From Candidatus Liptonbacteria bacterium (lineage in GTDB: Bacteria; Patescibacteriota; Minisyncoccia; UBA6257; 2-01-FULL-56-20), in the NCBI GenBank assembly GCA_023244895.1, contig JAHFLL010000001.1:163-64162 (forward strand): 64,000 bases of DNA, given 5' to 3'. This document shows, in pieces, positions 5,358 through 45,835 of the stretch. Below the pieces are notes generated by a model. The model saw only the letters and a list, made by a program, of their open reading frames with translations. It did not search any database and was not told the DNA's origin. Made by a program: the position numbers and the translations under genes. Every line of letters starts with the position of its first letter. Positions within the stretch are counted from its first letter, which is position 1.

Positions 5358-7127
5358 ATGAATAGCCAGAGTAAGCAGTGTCAGAATTGTAAATCCGATT
5401 TTACTATTGAATCCGAGGACTTTGCATTTTACGAGCGCATAAAGGTCCCCCCTCCGACCTTCTGTCCGGATTGTCGCCGGCAACGGCGCATGGCATGGCG
5501 TAACGAGAGGTCAATTTATCGCGCAAGTTGTTGTTTGTGCGGAAAAGCGATACTGACAATGTATCCCGAAGAATCGGGCGTGCAGTCTACCTGCCGGGAA
5601 TGTTGGTGGTCCGACTCCTGGGACCCCTTAAGTTATGGCGCGGACTATAATCCGGATAAAACTTTTTTCGCGCAGTTTTCTGAACTTGCCAAAAGGGCGC
5701 CGAGCCTGGCGCTATCCAATGTTGATTGCGTGGACAGCGACTACAGTAATTTCACCGCCTATAATAAAAATTGCTACCTGGTGTTCGGTAGCGGTTTTAA
5801 TGAGAACGTTCGGTATAGTAGGGCCTTGCGGTGCAGGGACTCCCAGGACTTGTTCGTGGGTAACAGCTGTGAGCTGTGTTACGAGTGTACGAATTGCTCC
5901 GATTCATACCGCCTGCTTTTTAGCTACAATTCCGAGAATTGTTCCGATTCCTATTTCTTATATAACTGCAGAAATTGTTCAAATTGTCTGGGCTGCATTA
6001 ATTTAGTCGATAAGTCCTATTGTATTTTCAATCAGCAATATAGCAAAGAAGAATATTCAAAAAAGATTGCGGAGTTGGAGCTCGGCAAATATTCGAGCCT
6101 GTTGAATCTGGAGGATAAGATTAAAAAAGAAGTGGTTTTAAAAGGGATACATAAATTCGCGAATATAGTGGCTTCTTCCCAGACAACCGGGGACAACATA
6201 AGGAATTCCCAAAATTGTCATTTCTGCTTCGATACTCTGGAAGATGTGCAAAATTGCAAATACTTGTATTACTGTACCGAACTTAAAGATTCTTATGATG
6301 GGATAGGTCAGTATAGGATGGAATTAGGGTACGAGAACGTGGACTGCAATGTAAGTAGCTCCGTCTTGGGTGGAATAACCATATACGACTCCAATAACAT
6401 TAGGTATTCCAAGAACTGCCACAACTGCAGTAATCTATTCGGTTGCGTTAACTTACGTAAAAAACAGTATTGTATTTTAAACAAGCAATATTCCAAAGAA
6501 GAATATGAACGGTTGATTTCTGAAATAATCGGGCAGATGAACTCCAATCCGTATTTGGATTCGAAAGGAAGAAAGCACGCTTATGGAGATTTCTATCCTA
6601 TTGAGCTGTCGCCATTTCCCTATAACCAAACCATAGCCCAGGAATACGCATTTCTGGATAAGGGTCTCGCATTAACCAATGGATACAAGTGGGAAGAACA
6701 TAACGATAAAAACTACGAGACAGATCTAACCTCCCTGGACTTACCGGATACCATAGCGGACGTTTCCGATAAGATTCTAAACCAGGTAATACAATGCGAG
6801 CATCTAGGGACCTGTGGTGAGCAATGCACTACCGCTTTTAAGATAATACCAGGGGAACTTCAGTTTTATAGAAAAATGAACTTACCCCTTCCTCGACTTT
6901 GTCACAATTGCCGCCACTACAAGAGGTTGAGGCAGCGTAATCCTCTTAAGCTCTGGTCTCGCAAGTGCCAGTGCGCAGGCCAAAAATCGGAGAATGGAAT
7001 TTATCAAAACACCATTGCTCACCCCCATGGCACGGATCGCTGCTCCAACGAATTCCAAACTTCTTATTCTCCCGACCGTCCGGAGATTGTGTATTGTGAA
7101 AATTGTTATCAAGCAGAAATCGTTTAG
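5358..7127 (+). CDS. cysteine-rich tandem-repeat protein (about 55 Cys; CxxC/NCxNC modules), function unknown
   Basis: The 589-aa ORF is divergent from the protease gene. It has an internal duplication in which both halves end ...NCxNCSNLxGCxNLxxKxYCIxNxQYSKEEY. The N- and C-terminal zinc-ribbon-like CxxC...CxxC segments mirror each other. There is no signal peptide. Confidence 0.65.
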   Translation: MNSQSKQCQNCKSDFTIESEDFAFYERIKVPPPTFCPDCRRQRRMAWRNERSIYRASCCLCGKAILTMYPEESGVQSTCRECWWSDSWDPLSYGADYNPDKTFFAQFSELAKRAPSLALSNVDCVDSDYSNFTAYNKNCYLVFGSGFNENVRYSRALRCRDSQDLFVGNSCELCYECTNCSDSYRLLFSYNSENCSDSYFLYNCRNCSNCLGCINLVDKSYCIFNQQYSKEEYSKKIAELELGKYSSLLNLEDKIKKEVVLKGIHKFANIVASSQTTGDNIRNSQNCHFCFDTLEDVQNCKYLYYCTELKDSYDGIGQYRMELGYENVDCNVSSSVLGGITIYDSNNIRYSKNCHNCSNLFGCVNLRKKQYCILNKQYSKEEYERLISEIIGQMNSNPYLDSKGRKHAYGDFYPIELSPFPYNQTIAQEYAFLDKGLALTNGYKWEEHNDKNYETDLTSLDLPDTIADVSDKILNQVIQCEHLGTCGEQCTTAFKIIPGELQFYRKMNLPLPRLCHNCRHYKRLRQRNPLKLWSRKCQCAGQKSENGIYQNTIAHPHGTDRCSNEFQTSYSPDRPEIVYCENCYQAEIV

Positions 7128-7191: not shown

Positions 7192-8721
7192 TTATTCTTC
7201 TCGTAAACGATAACTAAACGCTTCTGCCAAGTGTCCCGCGGAGACTTTTTCTTTTTCTTCCAGGTCCGCGATGGTTTGCGCAGTTTTGAGTAAGCGATAA
7301 TATCCGCGCGGAGATAATTTCGCCTTAGCTAGATTATCCATAAACTTCTGCGCTTCTAATTCTAATTCGATTAATTCTTCGGCCTGGCGGGAACTCATTT
7401 CGGAGTTGGTGGAAATTTTTAATCCCTTTTTGTTAAACCTCTCGCGTTGTTTAGAGCGCGCCTTCTCCACTTTGTCTTTTATCCCCGGACTGGTTTTTTG
7501 CTCCTCCGGCTTTTTGCGTAGCTCATCGTATTCCACCCGCAGAACTTTAAGCTGTAAATCAATTCTATCCATAAGGGGCCCCGAAATCTTTTTCTGATAA
7601 CGCACTACTTCATACGCGGAACACTTGCACTCTTTTTCCGGGTCGTTGTAGTAGCCACAGGGACAGGGATTCATAGCGGTTATAAGTGAAAATTTGGCGG
7701 GCAGAATTAGTGTGCCCTTGGCGCGCGCGATATGTACTAGCCCGCTCTCCAATGGCTGTCTTAGAGATTCTAAAATATTTTTTGGAAACTCCGGCAGTTC
7801 GTCTAGAAACAGAACTCCCCTATGAGCCAAGCTTATCTCGCCCGGACGCGGCACATTGCCTCCACCCACGACAGATATTAAAGACGCGGTCTGGTGCGGC
7901 GCGCGGAATGGTCGTTCATTAATTAGTCCGCCGGGATTAAGTCCCGCGGCACTATATATTTTCGTAACCTCAATCGCCTCTTCTCGGTCCGGTGCGGGCA
8001 GTATGCCGATTAAGGCTTGTGCCAGCAGGCTTTTACCGACTCCGGGCGGCCCCACCATAATCAGATTGTGCCCGCCCGCCGCCGCGATGATGAGCGCGCG
8101 CTTAGCGTGCTCCTGCCCTTTAATCTCCGAAAAGTCCGGCGCGCCCCTGCTCTCTCCCATGGCCTGCGAGAACACGGCAGGCTCCATTCTAATTCTCCCT
8201 TCTAATTCGCTCATTATCTCGGCCAAATCTTTCACTCCAAAGATTTCTACCCCCTCCACTACTGCCGCCTCGTTCGCGTTTTCTACCGGCAGATAAATTT
8301 TTTTGAAACCGGAGTTCTTCGCCATCTGCGCAATGCTTAAAACTCCGTTTACGGGTCGCAATCTGCCGTCCAAAGATAACTCGCCTAAAAATATTTTGTC
8401 TTTAGTTTCAAATTCCGAGATTTGTTTGGTGACCAAGAGATATGCCACAGCAATCGCGAGGTCATATTGCGAGCCGGTCTTTTTCACGTCCGCGGGCGCG
8501 AGATTGACCGTTATCTTTCTATTCTCGCGAGTCGGTGGTTTTACGCCCGCGTTCTTGAGCGCGGAGTTCACTCTTTCCTTCGCTTCATTCAAAGCCTTAT
8601 CCGCGAGTCCAACTATATTAAAAGAATGAAGGCCGACGTTTAAGTCGACCTCCACCTCAATCGGTCTCGCATGAATTCCTTCCAGTTCCGCGGAATAAAC
8701 TCTAGCGATCGTCTTGGACAT
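7192..8721 (-). CDS. comM: YifB/ComM family Mg-chelatase-like AAA+ ATPase
   Basis: The 509-aa ORF starts MSKTIARVYSAELEGIHARPIEVEVDL.... The central AAA+ Walker A is GPPGVGKS, and a C-terminal ChlI-like region is present. Confidence 0.85.
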   Translation of the reverse strand: MSKTIARVYSAELEGIHARPIEVEVDLNVGLHSFNIVGLADKALNEAKERVNSALKNAGVKPPTRENRKITVNLAPADVKKTGSQYDLAIAVAYLLVTKQISEFETKDKIFLGELSLDGRLRPVNGVLSIAQMAKNSGFKKIYLPVENANEAAVVEGVEIFGVKDLAEIMSELEGRIRMEPAVFSQAMGESRGAPDFSEIKGQEHAKRALIIAAAGGHNLIMVGPPGVGKSLLAQALIGILPAPDREEAIEVTKIYSAAGLNPGGLINERPFRAPHQTASLISVVGGGNVPRPGEISLAHRGVLFLDELPEFPKNILESLRQPLESGLVHIARAKGTLILPAKFSLITAMNPCPCGYYNDPEKECKCSAYEVVRYQKKISGPLMDRIDLQLKVLRVEYDELRKKPEEQKTSPGIKDKVEKARSKQRERFNKKGLKISTNSEMSSRQAEELIELELEAQKFMDNLAKAKLSPRGYYRLLKTAQTIADLEEKEKVSAGHLAEAFSYRLREE

Positions 8722-8734
8722 TTTATTCTCGCGA

Positions 8735-9067
8735 TTACTCTTTCTGCTTGCAGTTCTCGCACAATCTTGTTTCCGGTACCAGGTCTAATTCCCTTTCGGA
8801 TATCTGCCCTTGGCAGAATTCGCATTTGCCGTAATCCCCTACCAATATTTTAGCCAAAGCGGAATCTATGTCCGCGATGCGATCACGATAGGTGTGCGCA
8901 ACCGCGAGCTCATTAGAAAGATTCTCCGTCTCGTCCTGTTCTTCGGAATTGTCTTCCGTGTCATTGCCATAGTCGTCTCCTTTCTCATCTCCCTTCACCA
9001 TATCCAACAATTTAGCTCGCTCCGCTTCTAATTCTTCTTTATATGAATTTATCTTTTGCGCGTCCAT
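8735..9067 (-). CDS. DksA/TraR-family C4 zinc-finger protein
   Basis: The 110-aa protein has an N-terminal coiled coil. Its C-terminal CEFCQGQISERELDLVPETRLCENC matches the DksA/TraR Cx2C-x17-Cx2C finger. Confidence 0.7.
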   Translation of the reverse strand: MDAQKINSYKEELEAERAKLLDMVKGDEKGDDYGNDTEDNSEEQDETENLSNELAVAHTYRDRIADIDSALAKILVGDYGKCEFCQGQISERELDLVPETRLCENCKQKE

Positions 9068-9368
9068 AAATATTTATTATTGTATTTTTATTTATTAAAC
9101 CTCTATCGGAAAGCCTTGAAGTATTACCGAAGGATTTACTTAAGATTAAATGGTCTAGCAGGGTGGGTCAAGACGCGTAGCTGGAAATATGGAAATAAGC
9201 CGCCAAACAAAGGAGACCTCATAATTAATAGTATTCCGCTGTTGATAATTTTCCGTGCGATCAGCGAGACCATTTAATCTCTAATGGAAAAAGGCGGGAG
9301 TATGGGCTCAAAACCAACCAACTACTCCCCACAGAGGTCAAAATTCATAAAATAGGCTGCTTGGCGAC

Positions 9369-9441
9369 TTATCCCCATTCGGCAATTCGGCAAACGGGAC
9401 AACTGTGGATAACTTGTTGGATAACCCGGCAGTTATCCCCA
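9369..9441. promoter_or_regulatory. cluster of four DnaA-box-like 9-mers (TTATCCCCA x2, TGTGGATAA perfect, TTGGATAAC)
   Basis: I read these directly at 9369-9377, 9404-9412, 9417-9425 and 9433-9441. They sit inside an 860-bp ORF-free divergent intergenic region that also holds several ATTCGGCAAT/ATTGCCGAAT palindromes and an AT-rich stretch. Confidence 0.35.
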
Positions 9442-9545
9442 TGATTCGGCAATGCTATTCGGCAATTGCCGAATTAGACCATATAGAACTTGGCGATTGC
9501 CGAATTAGGCTAAAAACCCGGCAATTTATATATTTTGCCGGATTC

Positions 9546-9890
9546 TGACAAACATTTTTGTTTGTCAGAGCCTAAAAGCGCCATTTTTGACAAACAAAAG
9601 TGTTTGTCAGCGTAAAAAGTGTTTAGCGACAAACATTTTAGACAAAATGGGTCCGTAGCGGATGTTTAGCGACAAACATCCGCTATGTAGTGGTTGGTGA
9701 GATGTATCGGGAATATGATCGGTCTTTATCTGCAAAATAGCCTCTTGATATGTCTTCTGACTTAATTATCGCTGTCATAGGTGTTTGTCGCCAAACATAT
9801 TCAACAAATAAATTTAATGGTCGTATTTATTGTTTAGCGACAAACATTTTTAACGCGACAAGTGCGTTTTTTGTGTTTAGCGCTAAACAT
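9546..9890. repeat. array of at least 7 imperfect/perfect palindromes of type TGTTTAGCGACAAACA (TGTTT-N6-AAACA), operator-like
   Basis: Copies sit at about 9546, 9589, 9622, 9662 (extended palindrome GCGGATGTTTAGCGACAAACATCCGC), 9782, 9832 and 9873 (perfect TGTTTAGCGCTAAACA). Spacing is irregular at 32-120 bp. Confidence 0.6.
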
Positions 9891-9925
9891 CTGACACGCG
9901 ATTTAGTTTGTTTTAATATATAGTA

Positions 9926-10297
9926 ATGAGTAACTCGGAGGTAGGTAGGTTAGGCGAGGACCTGGCCTGCCGGTATCTAGAAAGGAATAGATATAGCGTA
10001 ATTGCCCGGAACTATCTTATTAAAAGAGTGGGGGAGCTGGATATTGTGGTTAAAGACAAATCCGGCATATTGGTCTTTGTGGAAGTCAAAACAATGTCCC
10101 CGGGGGAGCTAAAGCCCGAGGACCAATATTCTTTTGCGAAGAGAACTAAAATGACTCGCGCTTGCGAGGTTTTTCTGGCCAAGTATTCGGAATTAGTGAG
10201 CGATAGGGCGGGTTGGCGTATGGATTTAGTTGCAGTTGAGCTACCAGATCCAGAGGTCTCGGAGAAACCGAGAATCCGTCACTACCAGAACGTATAA
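9926..10297 (+). CDS. yraN: YraN/UPF0102 family endonuclease-like protein
   Basis: The 123-aa protein has GRLGEDLACRYLERNRYSVIARNY...DIVVKDKSGILVFVEVKT, the typical YraN core. Confidence 0.75.
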   Translation: MSNSEVGRLGEDLACRYLERNRYSVIARNYLIKRVGELDIVVKDKSGILVFVEVKTMSPGELKPEDQYSFAKRTKMTRACEVFLAKYSELVSDRAGWRMDLVAVELPDPEVSEKPRIRHYQNV

Positions 10298-10412
10298 TTG
10301 ACATAATTCGGCAAGTGTGTTTTAAATAAAATCAGAAAACGAGCGGCCCATTCCCGCTTGATAACAATCCAAGTTGGTGAATGGGGCCGACCTATTGGTT
10401 AGGAGTTTCGCC

Positions 10413-10790
10413 ATGAAGATTCTCGTCGTTGATGATGAGGCTGCTATTCGCGGTATCGTGACGCGCTGGCTCGAAGCCGCTGGTCATGAATCCTGGGCAG
10501 CGGTTAGCGCCGAGCAGGCCGTTGAAGAGCTGGAGTGCATAACTCCGGCTGTTGTCGTGAGCGACATCGAGATGTCCGCTCGCAACGGGTTCTGGTTGGC
10601 GGAAGAGATTGGCCGTCGATGGCCCAACACAGCAGTCATTCTGATGACCGGCTGTTTGGACGCGGGTATGGCCAGGCGGAGCATGAGTACGGGCGCGATT
10701 GACTATCTGCGCAAGCCATTCACGCGCGACCAGCTCGTGGCCTCCGTCAGTCGCGCGTTGCTCTGGCACCATTCACGAGTCGCTTCGTAA
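10413..10790 (+). CDS. stand-alone response-regulator receiver (CheY-like) domain protein, on high-GC island
   Basis: MKILVVDDEAAIRG..., the phospho-acceptor Asp region VVVSDIEMSARNG and ILMTG...K are present. A GGAG RBS lies upstream. No output domain or kinase is nearby. Local GC is about 62%. Confidence 0.7.
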   Translation: MKILVVDDEAAIRGIVTRWLEAAGHESWAAVSAEQAVEELECITPAVVVSDIEMSARNGFWLAEEIGRRWPNTAVILMTGCLDAGMARRSMSTGAIDYLRKPFTRDQLVASVSRALLWHHSRVAS

Positions 10791-10820
10791 TCGTAAACGG
10801 CAATCCAGGGAGGATATGTT

Positions 10821-11423
10821 ATGCGTTCGATTCTCGTGCTCGTCTTCGTGCTCATACTCGTGTCTGTGCCCGCAGTTGGCCAGACGTTGGCAACGGCCGA
10901 GACGGCTGGCTCCGGTAAGACCGCCGTCGTCGGCATGTACGACCGCGATTACGCGGGCGCATGGTTGGACGGCAGATTCGCGTTCGTGCGCGGCCTGTCC
11001 GACAGCTTCGACCTGTACCTGCTGACCGGACACACCAGGGTCGGCGGGGAGGGTCAGTGGTTTATCGCTGGGGGCGGCAACCTCCACCTTCTAGGGTGGC
11101 AGGGGACGCACCTGGCCGTGAACCCCATGATCGCTACCCCGGTCACGAATCGGAACAAGGCGTCCGTGGCGTGGTTCAACCCAGCGCTCATCGTCAGCCA
11201 GCGTCTCGTCGGAACCAAGCTCATCGCCTACGCGGCGGCGAATGTGGTGGTCCCGCTGGGCAAGACAGAGCGGGGCGTGTTTACCCCCGCGGAGACGTAT
11301 GTAAACTGGCCAGTTGGTCTCGCGGCCACCTTCGGCCAGTGGTCGGTTCTCGCAGAGTTCGACATCGGCGGGGAAAAGACCAGGGCGGTCGCCATTGCCG
11401 TGGCCTACCTACTGCCCAAGTAG
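10821..11423 (+). CDS. secreted hypothetical protein (signal peptide, beta-rich), high-GC island
   Basis: The signal peptide is MRSILVLVFVLILVSVPAVGQ, with a GGGAGG RBS. The protein ends with an aromatic-terminal-like ...AVAYLLPK. Confidence 0.5.
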   Translation: MRSILVLVFVLILVSVPAVGQTLATAETAGSGKTAVVGMYDRDYAGAWLDGRFAFVRGLSDSFDLYLLTGHTRVGGEGQWFIAGGGNLHLLGWQGTHLAVNPMIATPVTNRNKASVAWFNPALIVSQRLVGTKLIAYAAANVVVPLGKTERGVFTPAETYVNWPVGLAATFGQWSVLAEFDIGGEKTRAVAIAVAYLLPK

Positions 11424-15552: not shown

Positions 15553-15651
15553 CTGTTCCCTCAAAAAGTTATTGACATTGTTTCCATAAAAATATAAAAA
15601 CTATACAGGGACTGGGACGGACCTGGTCTTTTTTCGTTGGAGGGGCTCAGG

Positions 15652-16068
15652 ATGGCGAACGTAAAGGGAAAGATGGACGAGGGTAGGCATGGAGAGTTGC
15701 GGGCCATGTTGGAAGAACTTTTGACCAAATTCCGGACCGATACCCGGGATAAGGTCAGAAGGGCTCGTCCGCAGGATGGCGACCGTCGTATTGGCGCAAC
15801 CGACGATGATCCGCCGGAAGACCTGGAGCGCGGGGTGATTCTCGCGACGGCACAGGTCGCATCGGAAATGGCTAGTGCCGTGGGGCAAGCCTTGGCGCGA
15901 CTGGAGGAGGGCGCCTACGGCTTCTGCTGCGATTGTGACGATGACATCTCTCCCGCCCGGCTCCGGGCACTGCCGTTCGCTGTGCGCTGTACGGACTGCG
16001 AGAGGATTCGTGAGCAAGGAAAAGAATGGGAACGGCGCGAGACTCCGACCTCGTTGTTCCTCCAATAG
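15652..16068 (+). CDS. DksA/TraR-family C4 zinc-finger protein (second paralog, on high-GC island)
   Basis: GAYGFCCDCDDDISPARLRALPFAVRCTDCE matches the TraR/DksA finger, and a GGAGGGG RBS sits upstream of the ATG at 15652. The island is about 65% GC, so I discount the overlapping opposite-strand ORF. Confidence 0.55.
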   Translation: MANVKGKMDEGRHGELRAMLEELLTKFRTDTRDKVRRARPQDGDRRIGATDDDPPEDLERGVILATAQVASEMASAVGQALARLEEGAYGFCCDCDDDISPARLRALPFAVRCTDCERIREQGKEWERRETPTSLFLQ

Positions 16069-16146
16069 ATGCGGCGAGCGTGGCGTGGGCCCGGGTGCGT
16101 AATGCGCCCGGGCTCCTAAATTTATCGGCACCTATTTATTTATCGA

Positions 16147-24787: not shown

Positions 24788-24840
24788 TGTAGCGACAAAC
24801 ATCTGATAAACAGATTTGTTTGGCGACAAACAAAAAACAT
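24788..24840. repeat. second locus of the GCGACAAACA / TGTTTGGCGACAAACA operator-like palindrome
   Basis: tgtagcgacaaacatctgataaacagatttgtttggcgacaaaca lies immediately upstream of the MFS transporter gene. Confidence 0.5.
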
Positions 24841-27759: not shown

Positions 27760-27833
27760 GCGCATGTAGCTCAATTGGTTAGAGCCCCAAGCTTATACCT
27801 TGGTGGTTCCAGGTTCGAGTCCTGGCATGCGCA
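27760..27833 (+). tRNA. tRNA-Ile (anticodon UAU)
   Basis: The acceptor stem is GCGCATG/CATGCGC, the D-stem GCTC/GAGC and the anticodon stem CCAAG/CTTGG. The anticodon loop CTTATAC gives anticodon TAT, and the T-arm is CCAGG-TTCGAGT-CCTGG. No CCA is encoded. Confidence 0.85.
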
Positions 27834-27835
27834 CA

Positions 27836-30781: not shown

Positions 30782-33700
30782 TTATGGTTTTTCGTAGGCC
30801 TTGATGAATTCGCTAACGCTCATCCTTCCTATTTTGTCTCCACCCGCGAATCTTTGGTTCATATCCATGTGGTTAGCGAGCACCCCATATCCCTTGTTTA
30901 AGGATATATTTATTTTTTCTCCACTGGGTAGCTTGAACTTGGCAGTATGCCCAACCAGATTTTCTGGATTTCCATGTTGCTCCGGTAAATTCTTCAGAAA
31001 TTCATCCACCCGGACTTTTCTTAGAGACAAGTATTCCGGGCTGCGCAGTTCGCTTGGTGAAAATCTGAATAGTCCCCGCTGATTTTCTAGTAGGGAGCAC
31101 TCTTTAGAGTACGCAACTGCGTCCTGCATAAAGCTCTTGTTTTGCATCAAGTCTTCTATTGTATCAGTGCGTAACCCCGGGGAGAGATTAGGGGCGCCGT
31201 GCTCCAGGGAGAACGGACCGGGATGTTCGTGTATGAATTGGGTAACAAAATATCTAACATCTGCCCGCTCGGCGTTAGATAATAGATGCTCGCCTATTCC
31301 ACCCATATATCTGTCTAGCCCTTTCGATATAGCAGCCTCCATCTGATTGTATCCGGTCGGCATCTGGTATGGTTCCACATATTCATTTGCAAGGGGGGAT
31401 GTCTCGCCTATGCCTACAGGCGTGCCTTCCAGGGTAGGGGGCAATTCTGCCGGCACGCTCTGACCTAGCTCGTGAATCTCTGCCGGGTTGATTCCTGCCG
31501 GGCCGGATGCCTCCTCGGGAAGGTTGCTTTTCGGAGACCATTCATACGTGTGCCCGCTCTCTATTTTTATCTTGCCGTCCGCGTCAAATACCGCCTTTGA
31601 GCCAGGCTCCAAGCGAATGCGCACCTCTGAACCATCTGGTTTCACATAGCCCTGTTCTTTAAGCAGTTCCAGGGTGCGCGCGTCTACGGCGTGATTTATC
31701 TTGGCTTCATCGTCCAGGTCGTCTACCGTAAGTCCGAATTTAGCTTTCAACTCTTCGGGAGTTAAAGAATGGATTTGTTGTCTTAGATGTTCTTGTTCCA
31801 GCTTCCAAAAACTATCTCCTTTTTGTATGTCTATGGACTCGGGAGCCCTAACCGTTCCAACTTTAGGCTCCGTTACAGTGACTCGGGGGTTGTTCTCGGC
31901 TGGCATTGTGCCGGGCATGTTCCCGTTAGAAGCTCTGCCAGGCGTGTCTACTCCAGTCGGCTGACTAGCCGTAGATGCCCCTCTCTGATTTTCAACTAGA
32001 GTAGAACCACCTTTCGTCCCGGGCTCAGGAGTGATCTTGCCTCCAACGGTAGAGACATCAACCCCACCACCCCAAAGACCACCCAAGTGGTCAAAGGCAT
32101 AAGAAGTTCCGCGACCGGTAAGATACCCGACGCCCAGCATAACCATGAGTCTTGGAGCCAGGGTCGCGGCGGTTGTGACTCCTTTTCCAACCTCCATCCA
32201 CTTGGATATTTTCTGATATATTTCGTCCTCCCGAGATGCTTCTCCCTGGAACGCCCGGGCTCTTTCCATAAGCTCTTTTTCTCTTGGATCAACAAACATT
32301 TTGTTGCCCGCCCAGGTCATAGCTTTATCAATAGCTTTGCCTCCAAGTTTGCCGTATCCCTCATTAGCCGCGGTTGCAGCGCTACCAGCCAGGAACGCGC
32401 CGGCTACTCTTCCGGTCGCATATAAAGCGAGAGCCCCCAAGCCCAGACCGGTTGTAAAGTAGAATCCGGTCATCAATCCCGTTGTTACAAGTATTCTGGC
32501 CTTACGGTGTTCGCGCAGGTAGCGCAGGGTTGATTTGCCATGATTTTCCCAGGCCTTCCCCATCCATCCTTGCCCCTCTAGCGCACGGAACTTTTGGCTT
32601 TCTCCAATTACCATAACTTGATAAAGATCCGCGCTTACGGAGCGAAGTTCTTGTTCCAGCGCTGCCTTATCTTCTGCGCTCCAACTATCAAAGTCCGGCC
32701 CATGGGTATCTCTGTACCGCTTAGATATTTCTCCGGTCTTATCCGTGTAGGTGGCCTTGCCCAGTGAATCTTTATCGCGATTGTATTCCGCAGACAGCAC
32801 TCTTTCTCGATAAATCGCTAGAGCTGTCTCTTTGGACAGACCAAGCAGCTCTGTAGCTTTTTGGATAAATCTTTCTTGTTTTTCGGCGTCCTCCAAGTCT
32901 CCAGCTCCCGGTTTGAGTTCTGGGATATCAAAAAGCGTCTCCGCCCCCTTGTTGGATTTAATCGCTTTGCGCCACTCTTTTTTGTGTTTGCCCTTTCGTG
33001 CCTCTGCTAGACTTGCTCTCGCGACATCCAATCTGCTCGCGAGCGCTTCCGCCTGTTCGGCTGATAGAACTTTTAAGACCGGCTTTTCCCTTTCGGCTTC
33101 CTTTTGTTCTGGCGCGACAACCGGGGATTCGTTGCTTTTGCCGCCGAACAATCTAGTCCAAAAGCCACGCTTGGCGTCGGTCGCGGGATTATTCTCTGCG
33201 GGCGCGGTTGCGCTCTGATCAAGGAACGGTATCTCAAGCGGCTTACGACGGGAAATCGTAACTTCGGGGGATATATAACTCGTGTTCGCATTCGTGCTTT
33301 CCGCGGTTGGTTCTGTTGTTCCGCTGTCTGGCGGGGTTGCCGTTGCCGTCTGCTCGCCCCTGTCTATTGTTCTCTGAAGTATCGCCCGACTGTTCGTAAT
33401 ATCCCCCGTGAATCCTATTAACGCCTCTTCGTGTAATAATTTTGAAGCGTCATCTGGGAACTCGCCCACGAGCGGAGTCGCCTTCAGCTTCTTTAGTCGT
33501 AGGGCCACGGCTTCTAACTCTGTTTTTAAGGCCGGGACATCATCTATCTTTCGATCGCGTTCGCCGACACTGCCGCGCGCAAACAAGTCTCTTATCTGTT
33601 CTCCTATCTGGTCCAATTCTCGTCCAGCTTGTTCCGGCGTTATGGATTTCGGCTCATTCTCTGGTGTCCTGGCCCGCTCGCCTGGGGTTGATAATATTTC

Positions 33701-34462
33701 TTTAACTTCTGACTCAATATCTAAAATCCTCTTTTCGGCATCTTTAAGTATGTCTAAATAATCCGCCTTCTGTTCCTTGGTGGGGGATTTTATCAATTTG
33801 TGTATTCTCAGCATCTCCCGCATCAATTCCTCAATCCTCGGATCAGAGTATCTACCGGAAGTGCCTATCAACTTATTTAATTCCTGTAGACCGCTAAGAA
33901 TCTTGGTCTTTATAGCACCTTCAGTTTCTTCGCTGGGGGCTGTCTCCGGAGTGGGCTCTGGCTTCGCGCCAGCACTAATCTCCGGTTCTACCACTCCCTC
34001 TCCTACTGTAGGTGTTAGTGTTTTTGCCTCAGCGCTTCCTGGGACTGCGTCCGCGGTAGGAGTCTGCGTTTCTGCCGCGCTTGGCACCTCCGGGCTTGAT
34101 GGCGTTGCTTCGGGTATAAAAATAGCAGCATCTGGGACGAGCTGCTTTAATTCCGCCTCTATTTCTGCGAGTCTTGTTTGCTGACCCCTCAGTCTAGCTT
34201 CATACCCCGGCAATTTTTTATTTTTTCCAGAGGCAAGAAAGTTGGTTATGTCTACCAGCCTCCTGTCCAGCTCTCTAGCCTTCGGCGTGTCCGAGCTCCT
34301 GGATACGGATCTTAAGTATCTAGTTTTTAATTTTATTTCCTTTTCCGAAAGGGTTCTTTCGGGAGAGACTTCCATTCCCGGCTCTAAGCTTTCCATGGCC
34401 TGACCATCCGTTTCGACTGCCTGACCTGTGGGTTGATCGAAGTTAGGATTAAGTTTTGGCAT
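30782..34462 (-). CDS. giant (1226 aa) hypothetical membrane protein with long N-terminal coiled-coil/low-complexity region
   Basis: The ORF is intact and long. Two Gly-rich hydrophobic segments (ILVTTGLMTGFYFTTGLGLGALALYATG..., VTTAATLAPRLMVMLGVGYLTG) split an N-terminal part of about 700 aa with coiled-coil/Pro-Thr-Glu-rich character from a globular C-terminal part of about 400 aa. I recognise no enzymatic motifs. Confidence 0.7.
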   Translation of the reverse strand: MPKLNPNFDQPTGQAVETDGQAMESLEPGMEVSPERTLSEKEIKLKTRYLRSVSRSSDTPKARELDRRLVDITNFLASGKNKKLPGYEARLRGQQTRLAEIEAELKQLVPDAAIFIPEATPSSPEVPSAAETQTPTADAVPGSAEAKTLTPTVGEGVVEPEISAGAKPEPTPETAPSEETEGAIKTKILSGLQELNKLIGTSGRYSDPRIEELMREMLRIHKLIKSPTKEQKADYLDILKDAEKRILDIESEVKEILSTPGERARTPENEPKSITPEQAGRELDQIGEQIRDLFARGSVGERDRKIDDVPALKTELEAVALRLKKLKATPLVGEFPDDASKLLHEEALIGFTGDITNSRAILQRTIDRGEQTATATPPDSGTTEPTAESTNANTSYISPEVTISRRKPLEIPFLDQSATAPAENNPATDAKRGFWTRLFGGKSNESPVVAPEQKEAEREKPVLKVLSAEQAEALASRLDVARASLAEARKGKHKKEWRKAIKSNKGAETLFDIPELKPGAGDLEDAEKQERFIQKATELLGLSKETALAIYRERVLSAEYNRDKDSLGKATYTDKTGEISKRYRDTHGPDFDSWSAEDKAALEQELRSVSADLYQVMVIGESQKFRALEGQGWMGKAWENHGKSTLRYLREHRKARILVTTGLMTGFYFTTGLGLGALALYATGRVAGAFLAGSAATAANEGYGKLGGKAIDKAMTWAGNKMFVDPREKELMERARAFQGEASREDEIYQKISKWMEVGKGVTTAATLAPRLMVMLGVGYLTGRGTSYAFDHLGGLWGGGVDVSTVGGKITPEPGTKGGSTLVENQRGASTASQPTGVDTPGRASNGNMPGTMPAENNPRVTVTEPKVGTVRAPESIDIQKGDSFWKLEQEHLRQQIHSLTPEELKAKFGLTVDDLDDEAKINHAVDARTLELLKEQGYVKPDGSEVRIRLEPGSKAVFDADGKIKIESGHTYEWSPKSNLPEEASGPAGINPAEIHELGQSVPAELPPTLEGTPVGIGETSPLANEYVEPYQMPTGYNQMEAAISKGLDRYMGGIGEHLLSNAERADVRYFVTQFIHEHPGPFSLEHGAPNLSPGLRTDTIEDLMQNKSFMQDAVAYSKECSLLENQRGLFRFSPSELRSPEYLSLRKVRVDEFLKNLPEQHGNPENLVGHTAKFKLPSGEKINISLNKGYGVLANHMDMNQRFAGGDKIGRMSVSEFIKAYEKP

Positions 34463-34547
34463 ATTTTATTTATTATCTATGTTTATCGGTTAATTATAAC
34501 CTTTTGGTAAGAAAATATAAGATTGAAGCTACTTTATAAAAATTTGG

Positions 34548-34590
34548 TGCCCAGCTGCAGAGGACGTGTTGTCGTTCTGCAGCTGGACGG
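34548..34590 (-). terminator. hairpin terminator downstream of minus-strand GC-island gene
   Basis: The hairpin is CCAGCTGCAGAGGACGtgttgTCGTTCTGCAGCTGG, followed on the minus strand by a T-run. Confidence 0.45.
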
Positions 34591-34634
34591 GTTCTTCCGA
34601 GCTAACTACCGGCTCGGTTCGGTTTCGTCCGCGG

Positions 34635-35777
34635 TTAGTTCCCGCGGCGAGGGAGGTCTTCCGCCGGGGCCGCCGGGGCCGCGGGCGGTTCGGCCGGAGG
34701 CTGTGCCTGGGCAGCCGCCTCTTCCGCTTCGGCTTGCCGCCGAAGCTCTTCAACTGGGTCGCCCTCCGGCCCGGCGATCGTCGCGGGCGCCGCGGGCGTC
34801 GCGGGCGCCGAGTCGGGTCCGCCGAGGAGGCTCCGGACGTCCGGCGTCTGGGGCGTCGGGGCCACGGGCTGACGCGCCTTCCGGTAGAGCCAGGCGCATC
34901 CGACGAGCGCGACGAGGAGGAGGGCCAAGAAGATGTACCGCCACATGCTGGCGGAATCACGAGCGGCCTGGACATTCCCGACCTCCACGATGGAAGATTC
35001 GAGAACGACATCAGCATCCTTCGCCTTGCCGTCCTTGTCCTTCTCTGTCACGCCCAGCTTGAGAGCCAGGCGGTGGATGCCGGCGGTGAGCTTGTCGAGC
35101 AAGCTCCCGAGTTCCAGCGCCTTCTTCTCGGCCCTCTCCTTGTCGTTCTTGAGGGTCTCGCTCTTGGCTGCCACGGCGTCGATTGCATCCACGAGCGACG
35201 TGTCCTTGTCGACCTTGGCCCCCACCACCTCCGCAGCCTTCTTGGCGGCGACGGTGGCGTCCGCGATGATCTTGTCGCGCTTGGCGATGCCGCTGCGCAG
35301 TCCTGCGCGGTCGCGCTCGGCCCGATGCTGATAGGCCGAGAGAGCAGCCATCACCTCGTCGGCGTTGGCGGGCGCCTGGGCGCCACAGGTCGTCGGAACG
35401 TCGATGTTGATCGGCGTACGGACAATGGCGTCCGCGTCCAGTTTCGCGACGCGGAGCGCCGACGAGAGCCACGACGGGTGGCATTTGGCGGCTGTCAGCG
35501 CCTGATAGACGCGGAGTTCGGCGTTGCCGACCTTCACGACGATGCGTGTGCTTCCCGTCGCCGTCGCCGGGATGATCACGGGGGTCGGCGCCGTCGCCGA
35601 CGAGGTCGTGGTCATCTGCGAGGCTGCCTTGGGGGCATCCTGGTCGCAGGCCACCGTGAGCATGATCGGCTGGCCGCACTTGGCCTTGATCGTCGAAGCG
35701 TCCTGCGCGACCACGGGGGTGGCGCAGAGAGCGAGAACGCAGAGAGCGAGAACGCAGAGAGCGAGCTTCTTCGCCAT
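34635..35777 (-). CDS. secreted/membrane-anchored coiled-coil protein on high-GC island (Pro/Ala-rich C-terminal tail)
   Basis: The signal peptide is MAKKLALCVLALCVLALCATPVVAQ. A long helical Lys/Ala/Asp-rich region, a C-terminal TM helix (WRYIFLALLLVALVGCAWLY) and a PAAPA-rich tail follow. Local GC is about 66-70%, so several overlapping ORFs on both strands are spurious. Confidence 0.5.
   Translation of the reverse strand: MAKKLALCVLALCVLALCATPVVAQDASTIKAKCGQPIMLTVACDQDAPKAASQMTTTSSATAPTPVIIPATATGSTRIVVKVGNAELRVYQALTAAKCHPSWLSSALRVAKLDADAIVRTPINIDVPTTCGAQAPANADEVMAALSAYQHRAERDRAGLRSGIAKRDKIIADATVAAKKAAEVVGAKVDKDTSLVDAIDAVAAKSETLKNDKERAEKKALELGSLLDKLTAGIHRLALKLGVTEKDKDGKAKDADVVLESSIVEVGNVQAARDSASMWRYIFLALLLVALVGCAWLYRKARQPVAPTPQTPDVRSLLGGPDSAPATPAAPATIAGPEGDPVEELRRQAEAEEAAAQAQPPAEPPAAPAAPAEDLPRRGN
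35724..35765. repeat. 15-bp tandem repeat x2.8 (gcagagagcgagaac) encoding ALCVL repeats in the signal peptide
   Basis: I read the repeat directly from the sequence. Confidence 0.8.
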
Positions 35778-36015
35778 GGTGTCTAGGGGTCCTTGGCCCC
35801 ATGCCTAGTAGTTGAAGGAGAGCTAGGCCTCTCCGTAGATTGTGGGGTGCTGGATGGGGGCGGAAATGCCACCTTCCATACCTAATATTGTACCTTATTT
35901 TGCATAAAATGTCAATATGTATTATAGTATGGTTGATTAGCCTTATAAACTAAGGTAAAATCACCCTACTAAACGGTTCTAGCCATGTTTTACGGAGCCG
36001 GATAGTAAATGTAAC

Positions 36016-44339: not shown

Positions 44340-44680
44340 AATTTTTGAGCCCCGGACGCGATGATGCTGCATCCGGGGCTTCCCGCCACCCTCAGGCAAC
44401 GGCCCTTCGAACCTGGCGAGGGTCGACCCGATACCGCCCGCACAAAGTGGTGTATCGGAGCAACCACCCCCCGAACGTTCGCTTCGCGAAGCGAAGCAAT
44501 CCTCCCTTGGTCCGGCCAAGGAGCTTGTAGCCGAACCGGAACAACTCTCGCGCCGCCCTTCCGAGACGACGCATCGCTTCTTGCGCTGGCCCTTTGCGCA
44601 TATTCCAGCCTCCTCATGTGCTGGAATTGGTCCGCTTGCCCCGCTGGGATGGGTAGGGCGAACGTGACTGATTTCCAATG
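44340..44680 (+). other. 340-bp GC-rich (about 62%) non-coding segment dense in hairpins/palindromes; candidate structured RNA or foreign DNA remnant
   Basis: There is no convincing ORF. Hairpins include GCCCCGGA...TCCGGGGC, a perfect 20-bp palindrome CTTCGCTTCGCGAAGCGAAG, CCTTGGtccggCCAAGG and CCGATAC...GTATCGG. Confidence 0.3.
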
Positions 44681-44767
44681 ATAATTGTTTTTTTATTCAG
44701 GTCAAGTGCTGTTTCTTATCATTATTTACTACTATCTACTTACTGCATACTTTTATATAATGTATTC

Positions 44768-45208: not shown

Positions 45209-45664
45209 TTACCGCCGCGGCGGCATTGGGGCCACGTCGTCCTTCTTGGCGTAGAAGAACCAGAACGTAGCCTTAGTGCTGTCGTCCAACGCCGTGCCTT
45301 GATCGGGAGGAGAGATCCTGATTTCCAGAATCTCATATCTCTCCGGGTTGGATTGTCCCATCCGGAAGATCTCCCACCAAGTCACCCCCGAACATGCTCT
45401 GGGGTAAGCATCGCCCTTCGCGAAAGAGCACTCCACGGCCGTGGTCATGATGCCCAGGGGGTTCTGAGTCCGCCTCTCGAGTTCGGGGAGTCGGTAGAGT
45501 ACTGCCGCCCCCATGGAGGCCACGCTTCCCGCTCTACCCCCCGAGGAAGATCCCAGCATTCCTCCGAGCAGTCCGCCGAAAAACGCGCCCTGGGCGTTGA
45601 CGGGCATGACCGACAGAACTAGCATCGCAAAGATCCCAATGATTGTGACGAGCACTTTCTTCAT
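45209..45664 (-). CDS. small secreted Gly-rich hypothetical protein on high-GC patch
   Basis: The signal peptide is MKKVLVTIIGIFAMLVLSVMPVNAQG, followed by GGLLGGMLGSSSGG. Confidence 0.4.
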   Translation of the reverse strand: MKKVLVTIIGIFAMLVLSVMPVNAQGAFFGGLLGGMLGSSSGGRAGSVASMGAAVLYRLPELERRTQNPLGIMTTAVECSFAKGDAYPRACSGVTWWEIFRMGQSNPERYEILEIRISPPDQGTALDDSTKATFWFFYAKKDDVAPMPPRR

Positions 45665-45835
45665 TTGGTGCGGCCCCCCTTCGAGCCGAGTCTGGGCGCA
45701 ATAATGAAACATATTAAGCTGTGAGTCAAGAGTTGGTCAGATAACCATGTTCATGCTAAATTTATGGATATGATTTAGCTGTTTTACTCATCAACCGGCA
45801 CGTTTAGAAATTAGGTCAATTAGAAACTTATCAAA

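Follow-up and report, generated by a model that had tools for sequence, protein, structure and literature searches.

The DNA considered here is a window of 64,000 nucleotides, the whole stretch that was analysed, from a Candidatus Liptonbacteria bacterium, and the element in question is a long non-coding gap that separates a DksA/TraR-like gene from yraN. The gap holds an ordered and conserved set of DNA motifs, and they are best explained as a conserved chromosomal platform to which several proteins bind, as opposed to an ordinary promoter region. The most fitting description of the element is an array of variant parS sites fused to a cluster that combines DnaA boxes with a second repeated motif, here called B. 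Judged from its sequence, there is about an even chance that the gap is the origin/partition region of the chromosome. The parts of this proposal differ in strength: it appears fairly probable that the array of palindromes is a ParB centromere, and a location of oriC within the gap is a tentative proposal to which we give slightly less than even credence.

9068-9925: divergent intergenic region of 858 bp between the DksA/TraR-like gene and yraN

This gap is the longest in the window, where the next longest has 439 bp and the median is 49 bp, and its sequence is identical in two independent assemblies of the same organism. The window corresponds to the first 64 kb of a metagenomic contig of 284,193 bp (ena:ERZ27279942:k141_5531426), with its position 1 at about position 183 of that contig. 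An original prediction, made from the letters of the sequence, had singled out positions 9068-9545 as part of a long divergent region without open reading frames (ORFs), and both the region and every element listed for it lie where they had been placed. That interval ends at 9545 and thus omits the elements called E and P below, which make up over half of the structure.

The half of the gap that is closer to yraN carries two everted repeats (E) and five 16-bp palindromes (P), and a smaller group of related sites is present elsewhere in the window:

9547-9566: E1, everted repeat GACAAACA-TTTT-TGTTTGTC
9589-9608: E2, everted repeat GACAAACA-AAAG-TGTTTGTC
9620-9635: P1, parS-like palindrome TGTTTAGCGACAAACA
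9663-9678: P2, TGTTTAGCGACAAACA, 43 bp after P1
9782-9797: P3, TGTTTGTCGCCAAACA
9831-9846: P4, TGTTTAGCGACAAACA
9874-9889: P5, perfect palindrome TGTTTAGCGCTAAACA, 37 nt before the yraN start codon
24794-24832: secondary mini-cluster, direct half-sites GACAAACA and GATAAACA with the P palindrome TGTTTGGCGACAAACA

The P sites have the form TGTTT-RK-CG-MY-AAACA and are spaced 43-119 bp apart in the window, with three of the four intervals at 43-49 bp; in the arrays of relatives, collected without spacing bias, the median spacing is 43 bp. The general form of E is GACAAACA-N4-TGTTTGTC, which is two everted copies of the P half-site. Chance does not account for these numbers. The pattern TGTTTRKCGMYAAACA, with up to two mismatches allowed, matches the window eight times against 0.18 expected, and six of the eight matches are exact (five in the gap and one at 24817). 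The half-site GMYAAACA is found 35 times in the window where 7.5 copies are expected, with 14 in the 343-bp E/P stretch and four in the mini-cluster, which lies 15 kb away from the main array, in a 72-bp gap upstream of a major facilitator superfamily (MFS) transporter gene. Two unlike half-sites are combined in three of the five P copies, which lack self-complementarity at positions 6-7.

A regular repeat spacing of about 43 bp with unrelated spacers could suggest a structured non-coding RNA or leader, a degenerate array resembling clustered regularly interspaced short palindromic repeats (CRISPR), or a mobile repeat of the miniature inverted-repeat transposable element (MITE) type. Furthermore, E can form an 8-bp hairpin, and weak miRNA-like matches in Rfam simply reflect that hairpin. 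We give almost no credence to this group of explanations. The stems are invariant rather than covarying, three of the palindromes are hybrids, and the repeats are non-identical units of 16-18 bp whose syntenic position is fixed in many species. Within the window the motifs are not scattered, and viral contigs contain singletons only. With Rfam 15, the window yields only tRNAs, and positions 8900-10100 give only sub-threshold matches of the hairpin type. A CRISPR array, with its near-identical repeats of at least 23 bp, was rejected for the reasons that the unit is 16-18 bp, palindromic, variable and syntenic, and that no cas genes or domains were found by Pfam among the approximately 50 ORFs of the window. 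The RNA, CRISPR and mobile-repeat readings were together rejected on the invariant arms, the hybrid palindromes and the fixed syntenic position.

The half of the gap that is closer to the DksA/TraR-like gene is built from B motifs, one further copy of which lies beyond yraN:

9377-9543: B-motif cluster, nine copies of the 11-bp consensus AATNCGGCAAT, at 9377 (+), 9385 (+), 9424 (+, degenerate), 9444 (+), 9457 (+), 9465 (-), 9496 (-), 9516 (+) and 9534 (-)
9523-9536: AT tract AATTTATATATTTT, 14 nt, with convergent B sites on both sides
10306-10314: isolated B copy ATTCGGCAA, + strand, just past the yraN stop codon

The original prediction had reported at least five copies of ATTCGGCAAT as a local oddity. 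Five exact copies and one with a single mismatch are indeed present within 9377-9505, and no exact copy occurs in the window outside these positions, but this sequence proves to be among the two motifs that are most conserved at the locus. The 18-bp perfect palindrome that had been noted is likewise present at 9457-9474, as is the AT tract at 9523-9536. Enrichment is also evident for ATNCGGCAA, which occurs 11 times in the window against 3.15 expected, with seven of the 11 copies in the gap. For comparison we used 80 related loci fetched by means of comM/ComM. About 25 of these are syntenic with the window and, together with contig-end cases and two metagenome matches, they provide 31 homologous gaps. 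In three complete chromosomes of the clade, the homologous gap lies at about 290,420-291,031 of OZ246418.1, 820,829-821,240 of OY970382.1 and 789,215-790,067 of OY970175.1. There are 144 sites with the core CGGCAA in the 31 gaps, which keep the flanking AAT and the trailing T, and the 9-mers ATCCGGCAA and AATCCGGCA are strongly gap-specific.

The B copies at 9516 (+) and 9534 (-) converge on the AT tract, which could be either a candidate unwinding element or a -10-like element. In relatives, the cluster often consists of forward copies, then an AT tract of 14-21 nt, and then reverse copies. Such tracts adjoin the B cluster in the related loci L003, L012, L028, L038, L043, L044 and L068, and in L003, L043 and L044 convergent B sites flank them directly. 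Neither the B motif nor the E element has a described counterpart in the literature searched, where the motif strings matched only primers.

DnaA boxes are interspersed among these B copies, and an outlying 9-mer lies to their left:

9369-9441: DnaA-box cluster, consisting of the next four boxes
9369-9377: DnaA box TTATCCCCA, + strand
9404-9412: perfect DnaA box TTATCCACA, - strand, which reads TGTGGATAA on the + strand
9416-9424: DnaA-box-like TTATCCAAC, - strand, 2 mismatches
9433-9441: DnaA box TTATCCCCA, + strand
9240-9248: outlying DnaA-box-like 9-mer TTATCAACA, - strand, 1 mismatch

Three boxes with at most one mismatch are located inside 73 bp, and the box at 9404, already recognized as perfect by the original prediction, is the sole perfect one in the window. 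The clustering is not random: in 200 first-order Markov simulations of the window, the number of boxes of this quality in 75 bp never exceeded two. Four DnaA-box-like 9-mers had been proposed, of which three hold at this threshold; the fourth (TTGGATAAC, 9417-9425) has two mismatches when read as a box. Among relatives, six perfect boxes occur in 26 kb of homologous gaps versus three in 373 kb of flanking DNA (29-fold, p = 5e-6), and boxes with up to one mismatch are 4.9-fold enriched in the 31 gaps. A perfect box directly follows E in L003, L014, L016 and L069, follows the first P in L032, and lies inside the B cluster of L223. A DnaA-box cluster like that of the window is present in L003, the closest relative.

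The arrangement in which nusA-yraN faces dksA-like-comM across a long AT-rich gap is kept in about 25 of the 80 loci, and the elements follow the same order in homologous gaps: a B cluster, one or two E, an array of three to eight P, and then yraN. In 21 of the 22 gaps that can be scored, the B sites are located on the dksA-like side of P. Of the 31 gaps, 29 have two or more B sites and 24 have E; one or more P occur in 24, and three or more in 16. No array was found in 51 non-syntenic comM loci (556 kb), and Jorgensenbacteria-like and Wolfebacteria loci retain only remnants of the motifs. Over a range of ComM identities of 60-90%, the motifs keep their sequences, but the DNA between them is not conserved.

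A gap between divergent genes is also where a transcriptional control region would be expected. Under such an explanation, P/E and B would be the binding sites of two lineage-specific dimeric or oligomeric regulators, which together with DnaA in the role of a transcription factor would control the dksA-like-comM and yraN-nusA operons. The last P is directly upstream of a predicted -35/-10 pair, and the mini-cluster upstream of the MFS transporter gene is what a regulon would be expected to produce. In addition, a sigma-70-like site, TTGTCA(-35)-17-TAAATT, runs through E1 and a B site, which speaks for transcriptional control and against an origin or partition role. However, promoter-like matches in general number five against 3.2 +/- 1.9 expected and so are not above chance. 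At least 16 regulator sites would be spread over about 520 bp, with the core motifs about 400 nt from either start codon of the flanking genes, unlike operators in a genome stretch with a median gap of 49 bp. Conservation of sequence to this depth would also be more typical of universal DNA-binding proteins than of local regulators.

The behaviour of the motifs in rearranged loci bears on the same question. In L017, where yraN is inverted, the array is still located 5' to yraN and has another neighbour on its far side. In L223, which represents a more distant lineage (Parcubacteria Gr01-1014_3), half-sites are upstream of yraN, and one P, seven B and a perfect DnaA box are downstream; its whole B cluster lies downstream of yraN, at the site that matches the isolated B copy of the window. 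The motifs of L223 flank yraN with the B cluster downstream, and they are therefore not simply yraN promoter elements. The left-hand neighbour is variable as well (dksA-like, a LAGLIDADG gene, RNase T-like or FtsK), yet the motifs stay with the locus. From the cases of L017 and L223 we conclude that the motifs are not the operators of one promoter but make up a chromosomal element at the level of the locus, linked to the neighbourhood of yraN-nusA. We regard a transcriptional hub as unlikely. Even if the gap were only a regulatory hub, it would be an unusually dense and deeply conserved one.

A further recurring motif, approximately CCGATAAnGCGATrAAACCTA and often present in two copies, was seen in L224 (7560-8000), L233 (7700-7860), L068, L139, L019, L043 and L044. 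It sits between the B cluster and E or upstream of yraN, and is not evident in the window. It was also observed that the independent assemblies L003, L027, L028, L139, L225 and L226 end inside the motif array or within a few hundred bases of it, and that L027 has a run of N; the array region is apparently difficult to assemble or variable between strains.

In 14 related loci, an ORF of 132-177 amino acids of the single-motif LAGLIDADG homing-endonuclease type lies inside the array, always next to yraN. These ORFs are 42-60% identical between loci, retain the acidic catalytic residue, and have P palindromes or half-sites on their flanks. Loci that bear them tend toward fewer P copies, and the window has no trace of such a gene. 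The ORF coordinates include the following:

L003: 3-299
L004: 305-799
L005: 4938-5384
L016: 4783-5262
L019: 4334-4765
L021: 74-517
L030: 4659-5168
L039: 1368-1814
L044: 4824-5357
L069: 4771-5232
L223: 7453-7896
L231: 7448-7918

These insertions show that the non-coding stretch is conserved enough to host such an element, and they raise the idea that the P sites are recognized by a nuclease, either YraN itself or the LAGLIDADG protein, as a target for homing or as a landing pad. The array is always found together with yraN, and the P consensus with its flanks forms a palindrome of about 22-24 bp (AAAATGTTTAGCGCTAAACATTTT), which is the size of the targets of homodimeric LAGLIDADG enzymes. This explanation nevertheless seems very unlikely. 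The window and at least 11 other array-bearing loci keep P without a LAGLIDADG gene, and where the gene is present it has intact P copies to either side, so that P is unlikely to be the sequence that its product cleaves. Homologues of YraN occur widely among bacteria, and we know of no such arrays elsewhere. Finally, the mixed half-sites and the degenerate positions 5-6 fit the half-site reading of a helix-turn-helix protein.

The resemblance of P to parS makes ParB the candidate for that protein. The P consensus TGTTTAGCGCTAAACA matches parS (TGTTTCACGTGAAACA) at 12 of 16 positions, retains the outer arms and the central CG, and departs from parS at half-site positions 5-6 in the numbering of Jalal et al. 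2020. Some relatives come closer: L018 and L021 carry TGTTTCGCGCGAAACA, which has two mismatches from parS, and the half-site in L223 is the canonical GTGAAACA, of which there are six copies against 0.42 expected, all beside yraN. No parS within three mismatches (tGTTtCAcGTGaAACa) was found in the window, and no canonical parS with up to one mismatch in either the window or the 80 Paceibacteria loci. On this comparison, P would be at best a parS variant and not a canonical member of the family.

A metagenome scan used the pattern TGTTTNNCGNNAAACA twice, and this pattern also fits canonical parS, with the result that 118 of the 120 loci returned are ordinary parS arrays. The only P-type loci were L097 and L139, and both are syntenic with the window. 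The 118 canonical loci served as a control set, whose spacing distribution is biased by the search pattern. They show that tandem canonical parS arrays are frequent, with parB in 60 and dnaA in seven of them within the fetched stretch.

ParA and ParB are encoded in Paceibacteria, where ParB is widespread, and the homologues there are unusual at a position of importance for DNA recognition. R173 and G201 are reported to be strictly invariant among ParB orthologues, and position 201 is one of four specificity residues and acts at half-site position 6 (Jalal et al. 2020, PMC7383237). In an ungapped alignment with Spo0J of B. subtilis, the Paceibacteria ParBs keep the GKSR motif that includes R173, and have INESQAR in place of the canonical SMGHGR. 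The position that corresponds to G201 of the Caulobacter protein is Ser in all 112 scorable homologues of the clade, whose genomes are not proven to carry the array, and is Gly in 26 of 28 ParBs encoded beside canonical parS arrays. Examples of the Ser201 type, among the proteins P0121-P0240, are encoded as follows:

L070, 1103-2182: Ser201-type ParB
L227, 10001-11131: Ser201-type ParB

The residue change in ParB and the deviation in P thus occur at matching places, a suggestive correspondence that would fit a variant site. If the two belong together, the replacement of Gly201 by Ser combined with an altered parS core would be a natural case of the specificity switching engineered by Jalal et al. 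2020. The same two loci carry parA-parB at 1.2 kb (L070) and 3.1 kb (L227) from the dksA-like-comM block that borders the array in the window. Here the parA-parB genes near dksA-like-comM(-ksgA) occupy 1103-3051 in L070 and 9206-11131 in L227, and both lineages are without an array at that place. This layout suggests a link between partition and this chromosomal neighbourhood throughout the class.

Since parS sites are normally origin-proximal (PMC7383237), the gap was also considered as a place where replication might begin. The original prediction had held that its composition resembles a replication origin or a DnaA-regulated control region, and had proposed GC-skew analysis as a check. Gene orientation diverges at the gap: 71% of the coding bases in the window are on the + strand to its right and 68% on the - strand to its left, and in 26 relatives 73-79% of coding points away from the gap on both sides. 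Raw GC skew merely follows gene strand. When skew at third codon positions (GC3 skew) is taken on the coding strand, it averages +0.004 for - strand genes and -0.101 for + strand genes to the left of the gap, where only seven genes lie, and +0.063 for + strand genes and +0.014 for - strand genes to the right. It is therefore higher for the genes that point away from the gap on both sides, and the orientation-corrected GC3 skew of the window changes sign at the gap, a pattern that would suit an origin. The exceptional length of the gap and the distance of about 400 nt from its core motifs to either start codon also count in favour of an origin. Published accounts of related organisms are compatible with an origin of this appearance. 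An origin in the Candidate Phyla Radiation (CPR), placed by GC skew in Peribacteria, was not evident from gene content and had short repeats and DnaA-box-like sequences (PMC4736985), and origins in metagenome-assembled genomes 'typically contain a small repeat array' (PMC7111523). Beyond these passing mentions of CPR origins, we found no literature on oriC or parS in Patescibacteria or Parcubacteria.

A number of observations weigh against an origin/partition role, and they concern both halves of the gap. For the origin, 19 of the 31 homologous gaps have no DnaA box within one mismatch, and no run of at least three DnaA-trios, repeats that many though not all origins have beside a DnaA box, was found on either strand of the gap. 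The AT tract near the boxes comprises only 14 nt, and the 25-mers of lowest stability are located at the two ends of the gap, at 9071-9095 and 9903-9927. The skew at third positions between A and T (AT3 skew) does not flip at the gap as GC3 skew does, and the contig extends only 9 kb to the left. Among relatives, GC3 skew gave a weak result for the comM side (p = 0.085), and the corresponding test for the yraN side was discarded, as several of the ORFs that point toward the gap are antisense shadows of nusA. As the original prediction had stated, the gap does not adjoin dnaA or dnaN, neither of which turned up in the window when about 50 ORFs were scanned with Pfam and a DnaA query was run by tblastn; dnaA was not found by tblastn in any Paceibacteria locus searched, and a canonical origin next to dnaA is possible. 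Its suggestion of an origin or DnaA-regulated region is thus favoured by box enrichment, orientation and GC3 skew, but not by the boxes of most relatives, the search for trios or the AT3 skew.

For the partition half, no parB was found in the 64-kb window or in any array-bearing locus, and no P-type or parS-like site was found within 10 kb of five Paceibacteria parB genes that were inspected, which are not from genomes shown to carry the array. Consequently, the link between P and ParB is one of sequence similarity and residue change rather than adjacency. The E element is, moreover, missing from the canonical parS arrays examined.

Several of these points would be accommodated if the gap were a centromere only. 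In that case, P and E would be the partition site, B would bind an accessory partition or nucleoid protein, and replication would start elsewhere, for example beside dnaA. The DnaA boxes would then mark a secondary DnaA-binding locus (of the datA, DARS or box-cluster type) or a DnaA-controlled promoter. All of the parS-type evidence applies equally to this explanation, and the scarcity of DnaA boxes, their absence from most of the gaps, the lack of a DnaA-trio or of a long AT-rich element by the boxes, and the unflipped AT3 skew are in its favour. We consider it doubtful but deserving of attention. It does not explain why gene orientation and GC3 skew diverge exactly at the gap or why perfect DnaA boxes hold a fixed architectural position in several lineages, and the convergence of B sites on an AT tract is a conserved arrangement without a known role in partition.

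In the combined origin/partition reading that we favour, the two halves of the gap would have distinct tasks. The yraN-proximal half (9547-9889) would be a parS-like array that provides nucleation sites for the divergent ParB of the clade, whose dimers may load at each palindrome, spread, and recruit ParA and SMC, such that the array acts as a chromosomal centromere. The dksA-like-proximal half (9369-9543), with its DnaA boxes interleaved with nine AATNCGGCAAT sites, the last two of which converge on the AT tract, would be the replication origin proper or an adjacent site that titrates or regulates DnaA. DnaA and a B-site protein could assemble there and open the AT tract. We infer these pairings of proteins with motifs, as well as the start of replication in the gap, from the arrangement of the motifs and their conservation.

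If the gap serves as oriC throughout the clade, then the initiator must recognize something else, because 19 of the 31 gaps are without a DnaA box within one mismatch. One speculative possibility, which we think improbable at present, is that in this Paceibacteria clade the origin is primarily recognized through the AATNCGGCAAT sites and not through canonical DnaA boxes, and that these sites are fused to a variant-parS centromere read by a Ser201 ParB. These sites might be bound by a DnaA of altered specificity or by a different initiator or co-initiator, with convergence on the AT tract in the manner of archaeal origin recognition box (ORB) elements. If true, the clade would use an origin code not described before, and sequence alone would be enough to locate the origin in hundreds of fragmentary genomes.

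The practical utility of such a signature would not be limited to this possibility. The origins and partition sites of CPR/Patescibacteria are uncharacterized in the literature searched, most of the organisms have not been cultured, and their genomes tend to be fragmented. A recognizable origin/partition signature would be useful for orienting and checking assemblies and for anchoring growth-rate estimates that are based on coverage. It would also supply probes and proteins for in vitro work, namely the Ser201 ParB, DnaA and a putative AATNCGGCAAT-binding protein.

The genes that border the gap are as follows:

7192-8721: comM/yifB-type Mg-chelatase-like AAA+ gene, - strand, Pfam PF01078/PF13541/PF13335, on the left flank and used as the synteny anchor
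8735-9067: DksA/TraR-like C4 zinc-finger gene, 110 amino acids, - strand, with CxxC...CxxC in its translation, reading away from the gap
9926-10297: yraN (UPF0102, PD-(D/E)xK-type predicted endonuclease), + strand, Pfam PF02021

The closest relatives of this ComM are in Candidatus Liptonbacteria and other Paceibacteria/Patescibacteria genomes assembled from metagenomes. The DksA/TraR-like gene of the window has no Pfam match at E<=0.001, and its homologues have PF01258. Downstream of yraN are, in order, a receiver-domain gene, an ORF of 200 amino acids, nusA and an H+-pyrophosphatase gene. The receiver gene, which would encode a stand-alone response regulator, and the 200-amino-acid ORF (together 10374-11423) have 59-64% G+C compared with about 47-48% for the genome. 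In most relatives nusA directly follows yraN without this insert. It is present in two independent assemblies and is therefore not a chimera; it looks horizontally acquired. Other islands of 59-69% G+C are found at 15601-16131, 34520-35800, 44361-44681 and 45209-45712, where overlapping ORFs on both strands have no Pfam matches.

The left part of the gap has features of its own. A 17-nt inverted repeat (9143-9159 and 9264-9280) is 94% complementary with 104 nt between its arms, and the RNA fold of 9100-9340 is not significantly stable in comparison with shuffled sequences (z = -1.88). This part (9100-9340) is not conserved in L003, with which it shares only the block GATTTACTTAAGATTAA. Elsewhere in the window, a tRNA-Ile with the anticodon TAT (UAU) at 27760-27834 represents an uncommon bacterial way of decoding AUA, and two large proteins have no Pfam match, one of 589 amino acids that is rich in CxxC pairs (5358-7127) and one of 1226 amino acids (30782-34462).

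Comparison with known systems places the element among several classes without an exact match. Among plasmid centromeres and operators, sopC of the F plasmid is composed of 43-bp units in tandem that each contain a 16-bp inverted repeat, and the KorB operator of RK2 is TTTAGC(C/G)GCTAAA. Several P copies share the 43-bp period of sopC, and the P core TTTAGCGCTAAA is the KorB operator without its central base. The present locus differs in being chromosomal and syntenic with core genes, and its copies do not form exact tandem units. There was no sign of a plasmid or phage context, and scans of viral contigs for P and E gave only single, chance-like matches.

Clusters of DnaA boxes outside origins are known from datA and DARS1/2 of E. 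coli and from the DnaA-box clusters of B. subtilis. Like these, the gap holds an intergenic cluster of few boxes that is away from dnaA and beside the sites of other proteins, but those clusters are not known to be tied to parS arrays or to a switch in gene orientation. In archaeal origins, inverted ORB elements flank an AT-rich unwinding element. As an analogy of layout only, the asymmetric sites of 10-11 bp that converge on an AT tract in the window, L003, L043 and L044 recall this arrangement. The present host is bacterial, however, no Orc1/Cdc6-type initiator was seen, and the tract is much shorter.

The gap resembles bacterial oriC regions, and the origins reported for CPR genomes (PMC4736985, PMC7111523), in its DnaA-box cluster with a perfect box, its short asymmetric repeats in both directions and its AT tract. 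Diverging gene orientation and, more weakly, a sign change in GC3 skew would be further points of agreement, and in not adjoining dnaA the gap is CPR-like. It differs from oriC in that boxes are few and missing in most relatives, a DnaA-trio is lacking, the AT tract is very short, and the dominant conserved repeat AATNCGGCAAT is not a DnaA box; the skew evidence here is on the scale of the window or locus.

Chromosomal parS/ParB centromeres (consensus tGTTtCAcGTGaAACa) provide the remaining comparison. At half-site positions 5-6, P has AG, GT, CG or GG rather than CA, and these positions vary between copies. Its array includes E, the ParB of the clade has Ser in place of the invariant Gly201, and the window is without parB. 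What the two systems share is a 16-bp palindrome with identical outer arms (TGTTT...AAACA) and a central CG, sites that are arrayed (for P at a median of 43 bp) with another site 15 kb away, and a clade that encodes ParB.

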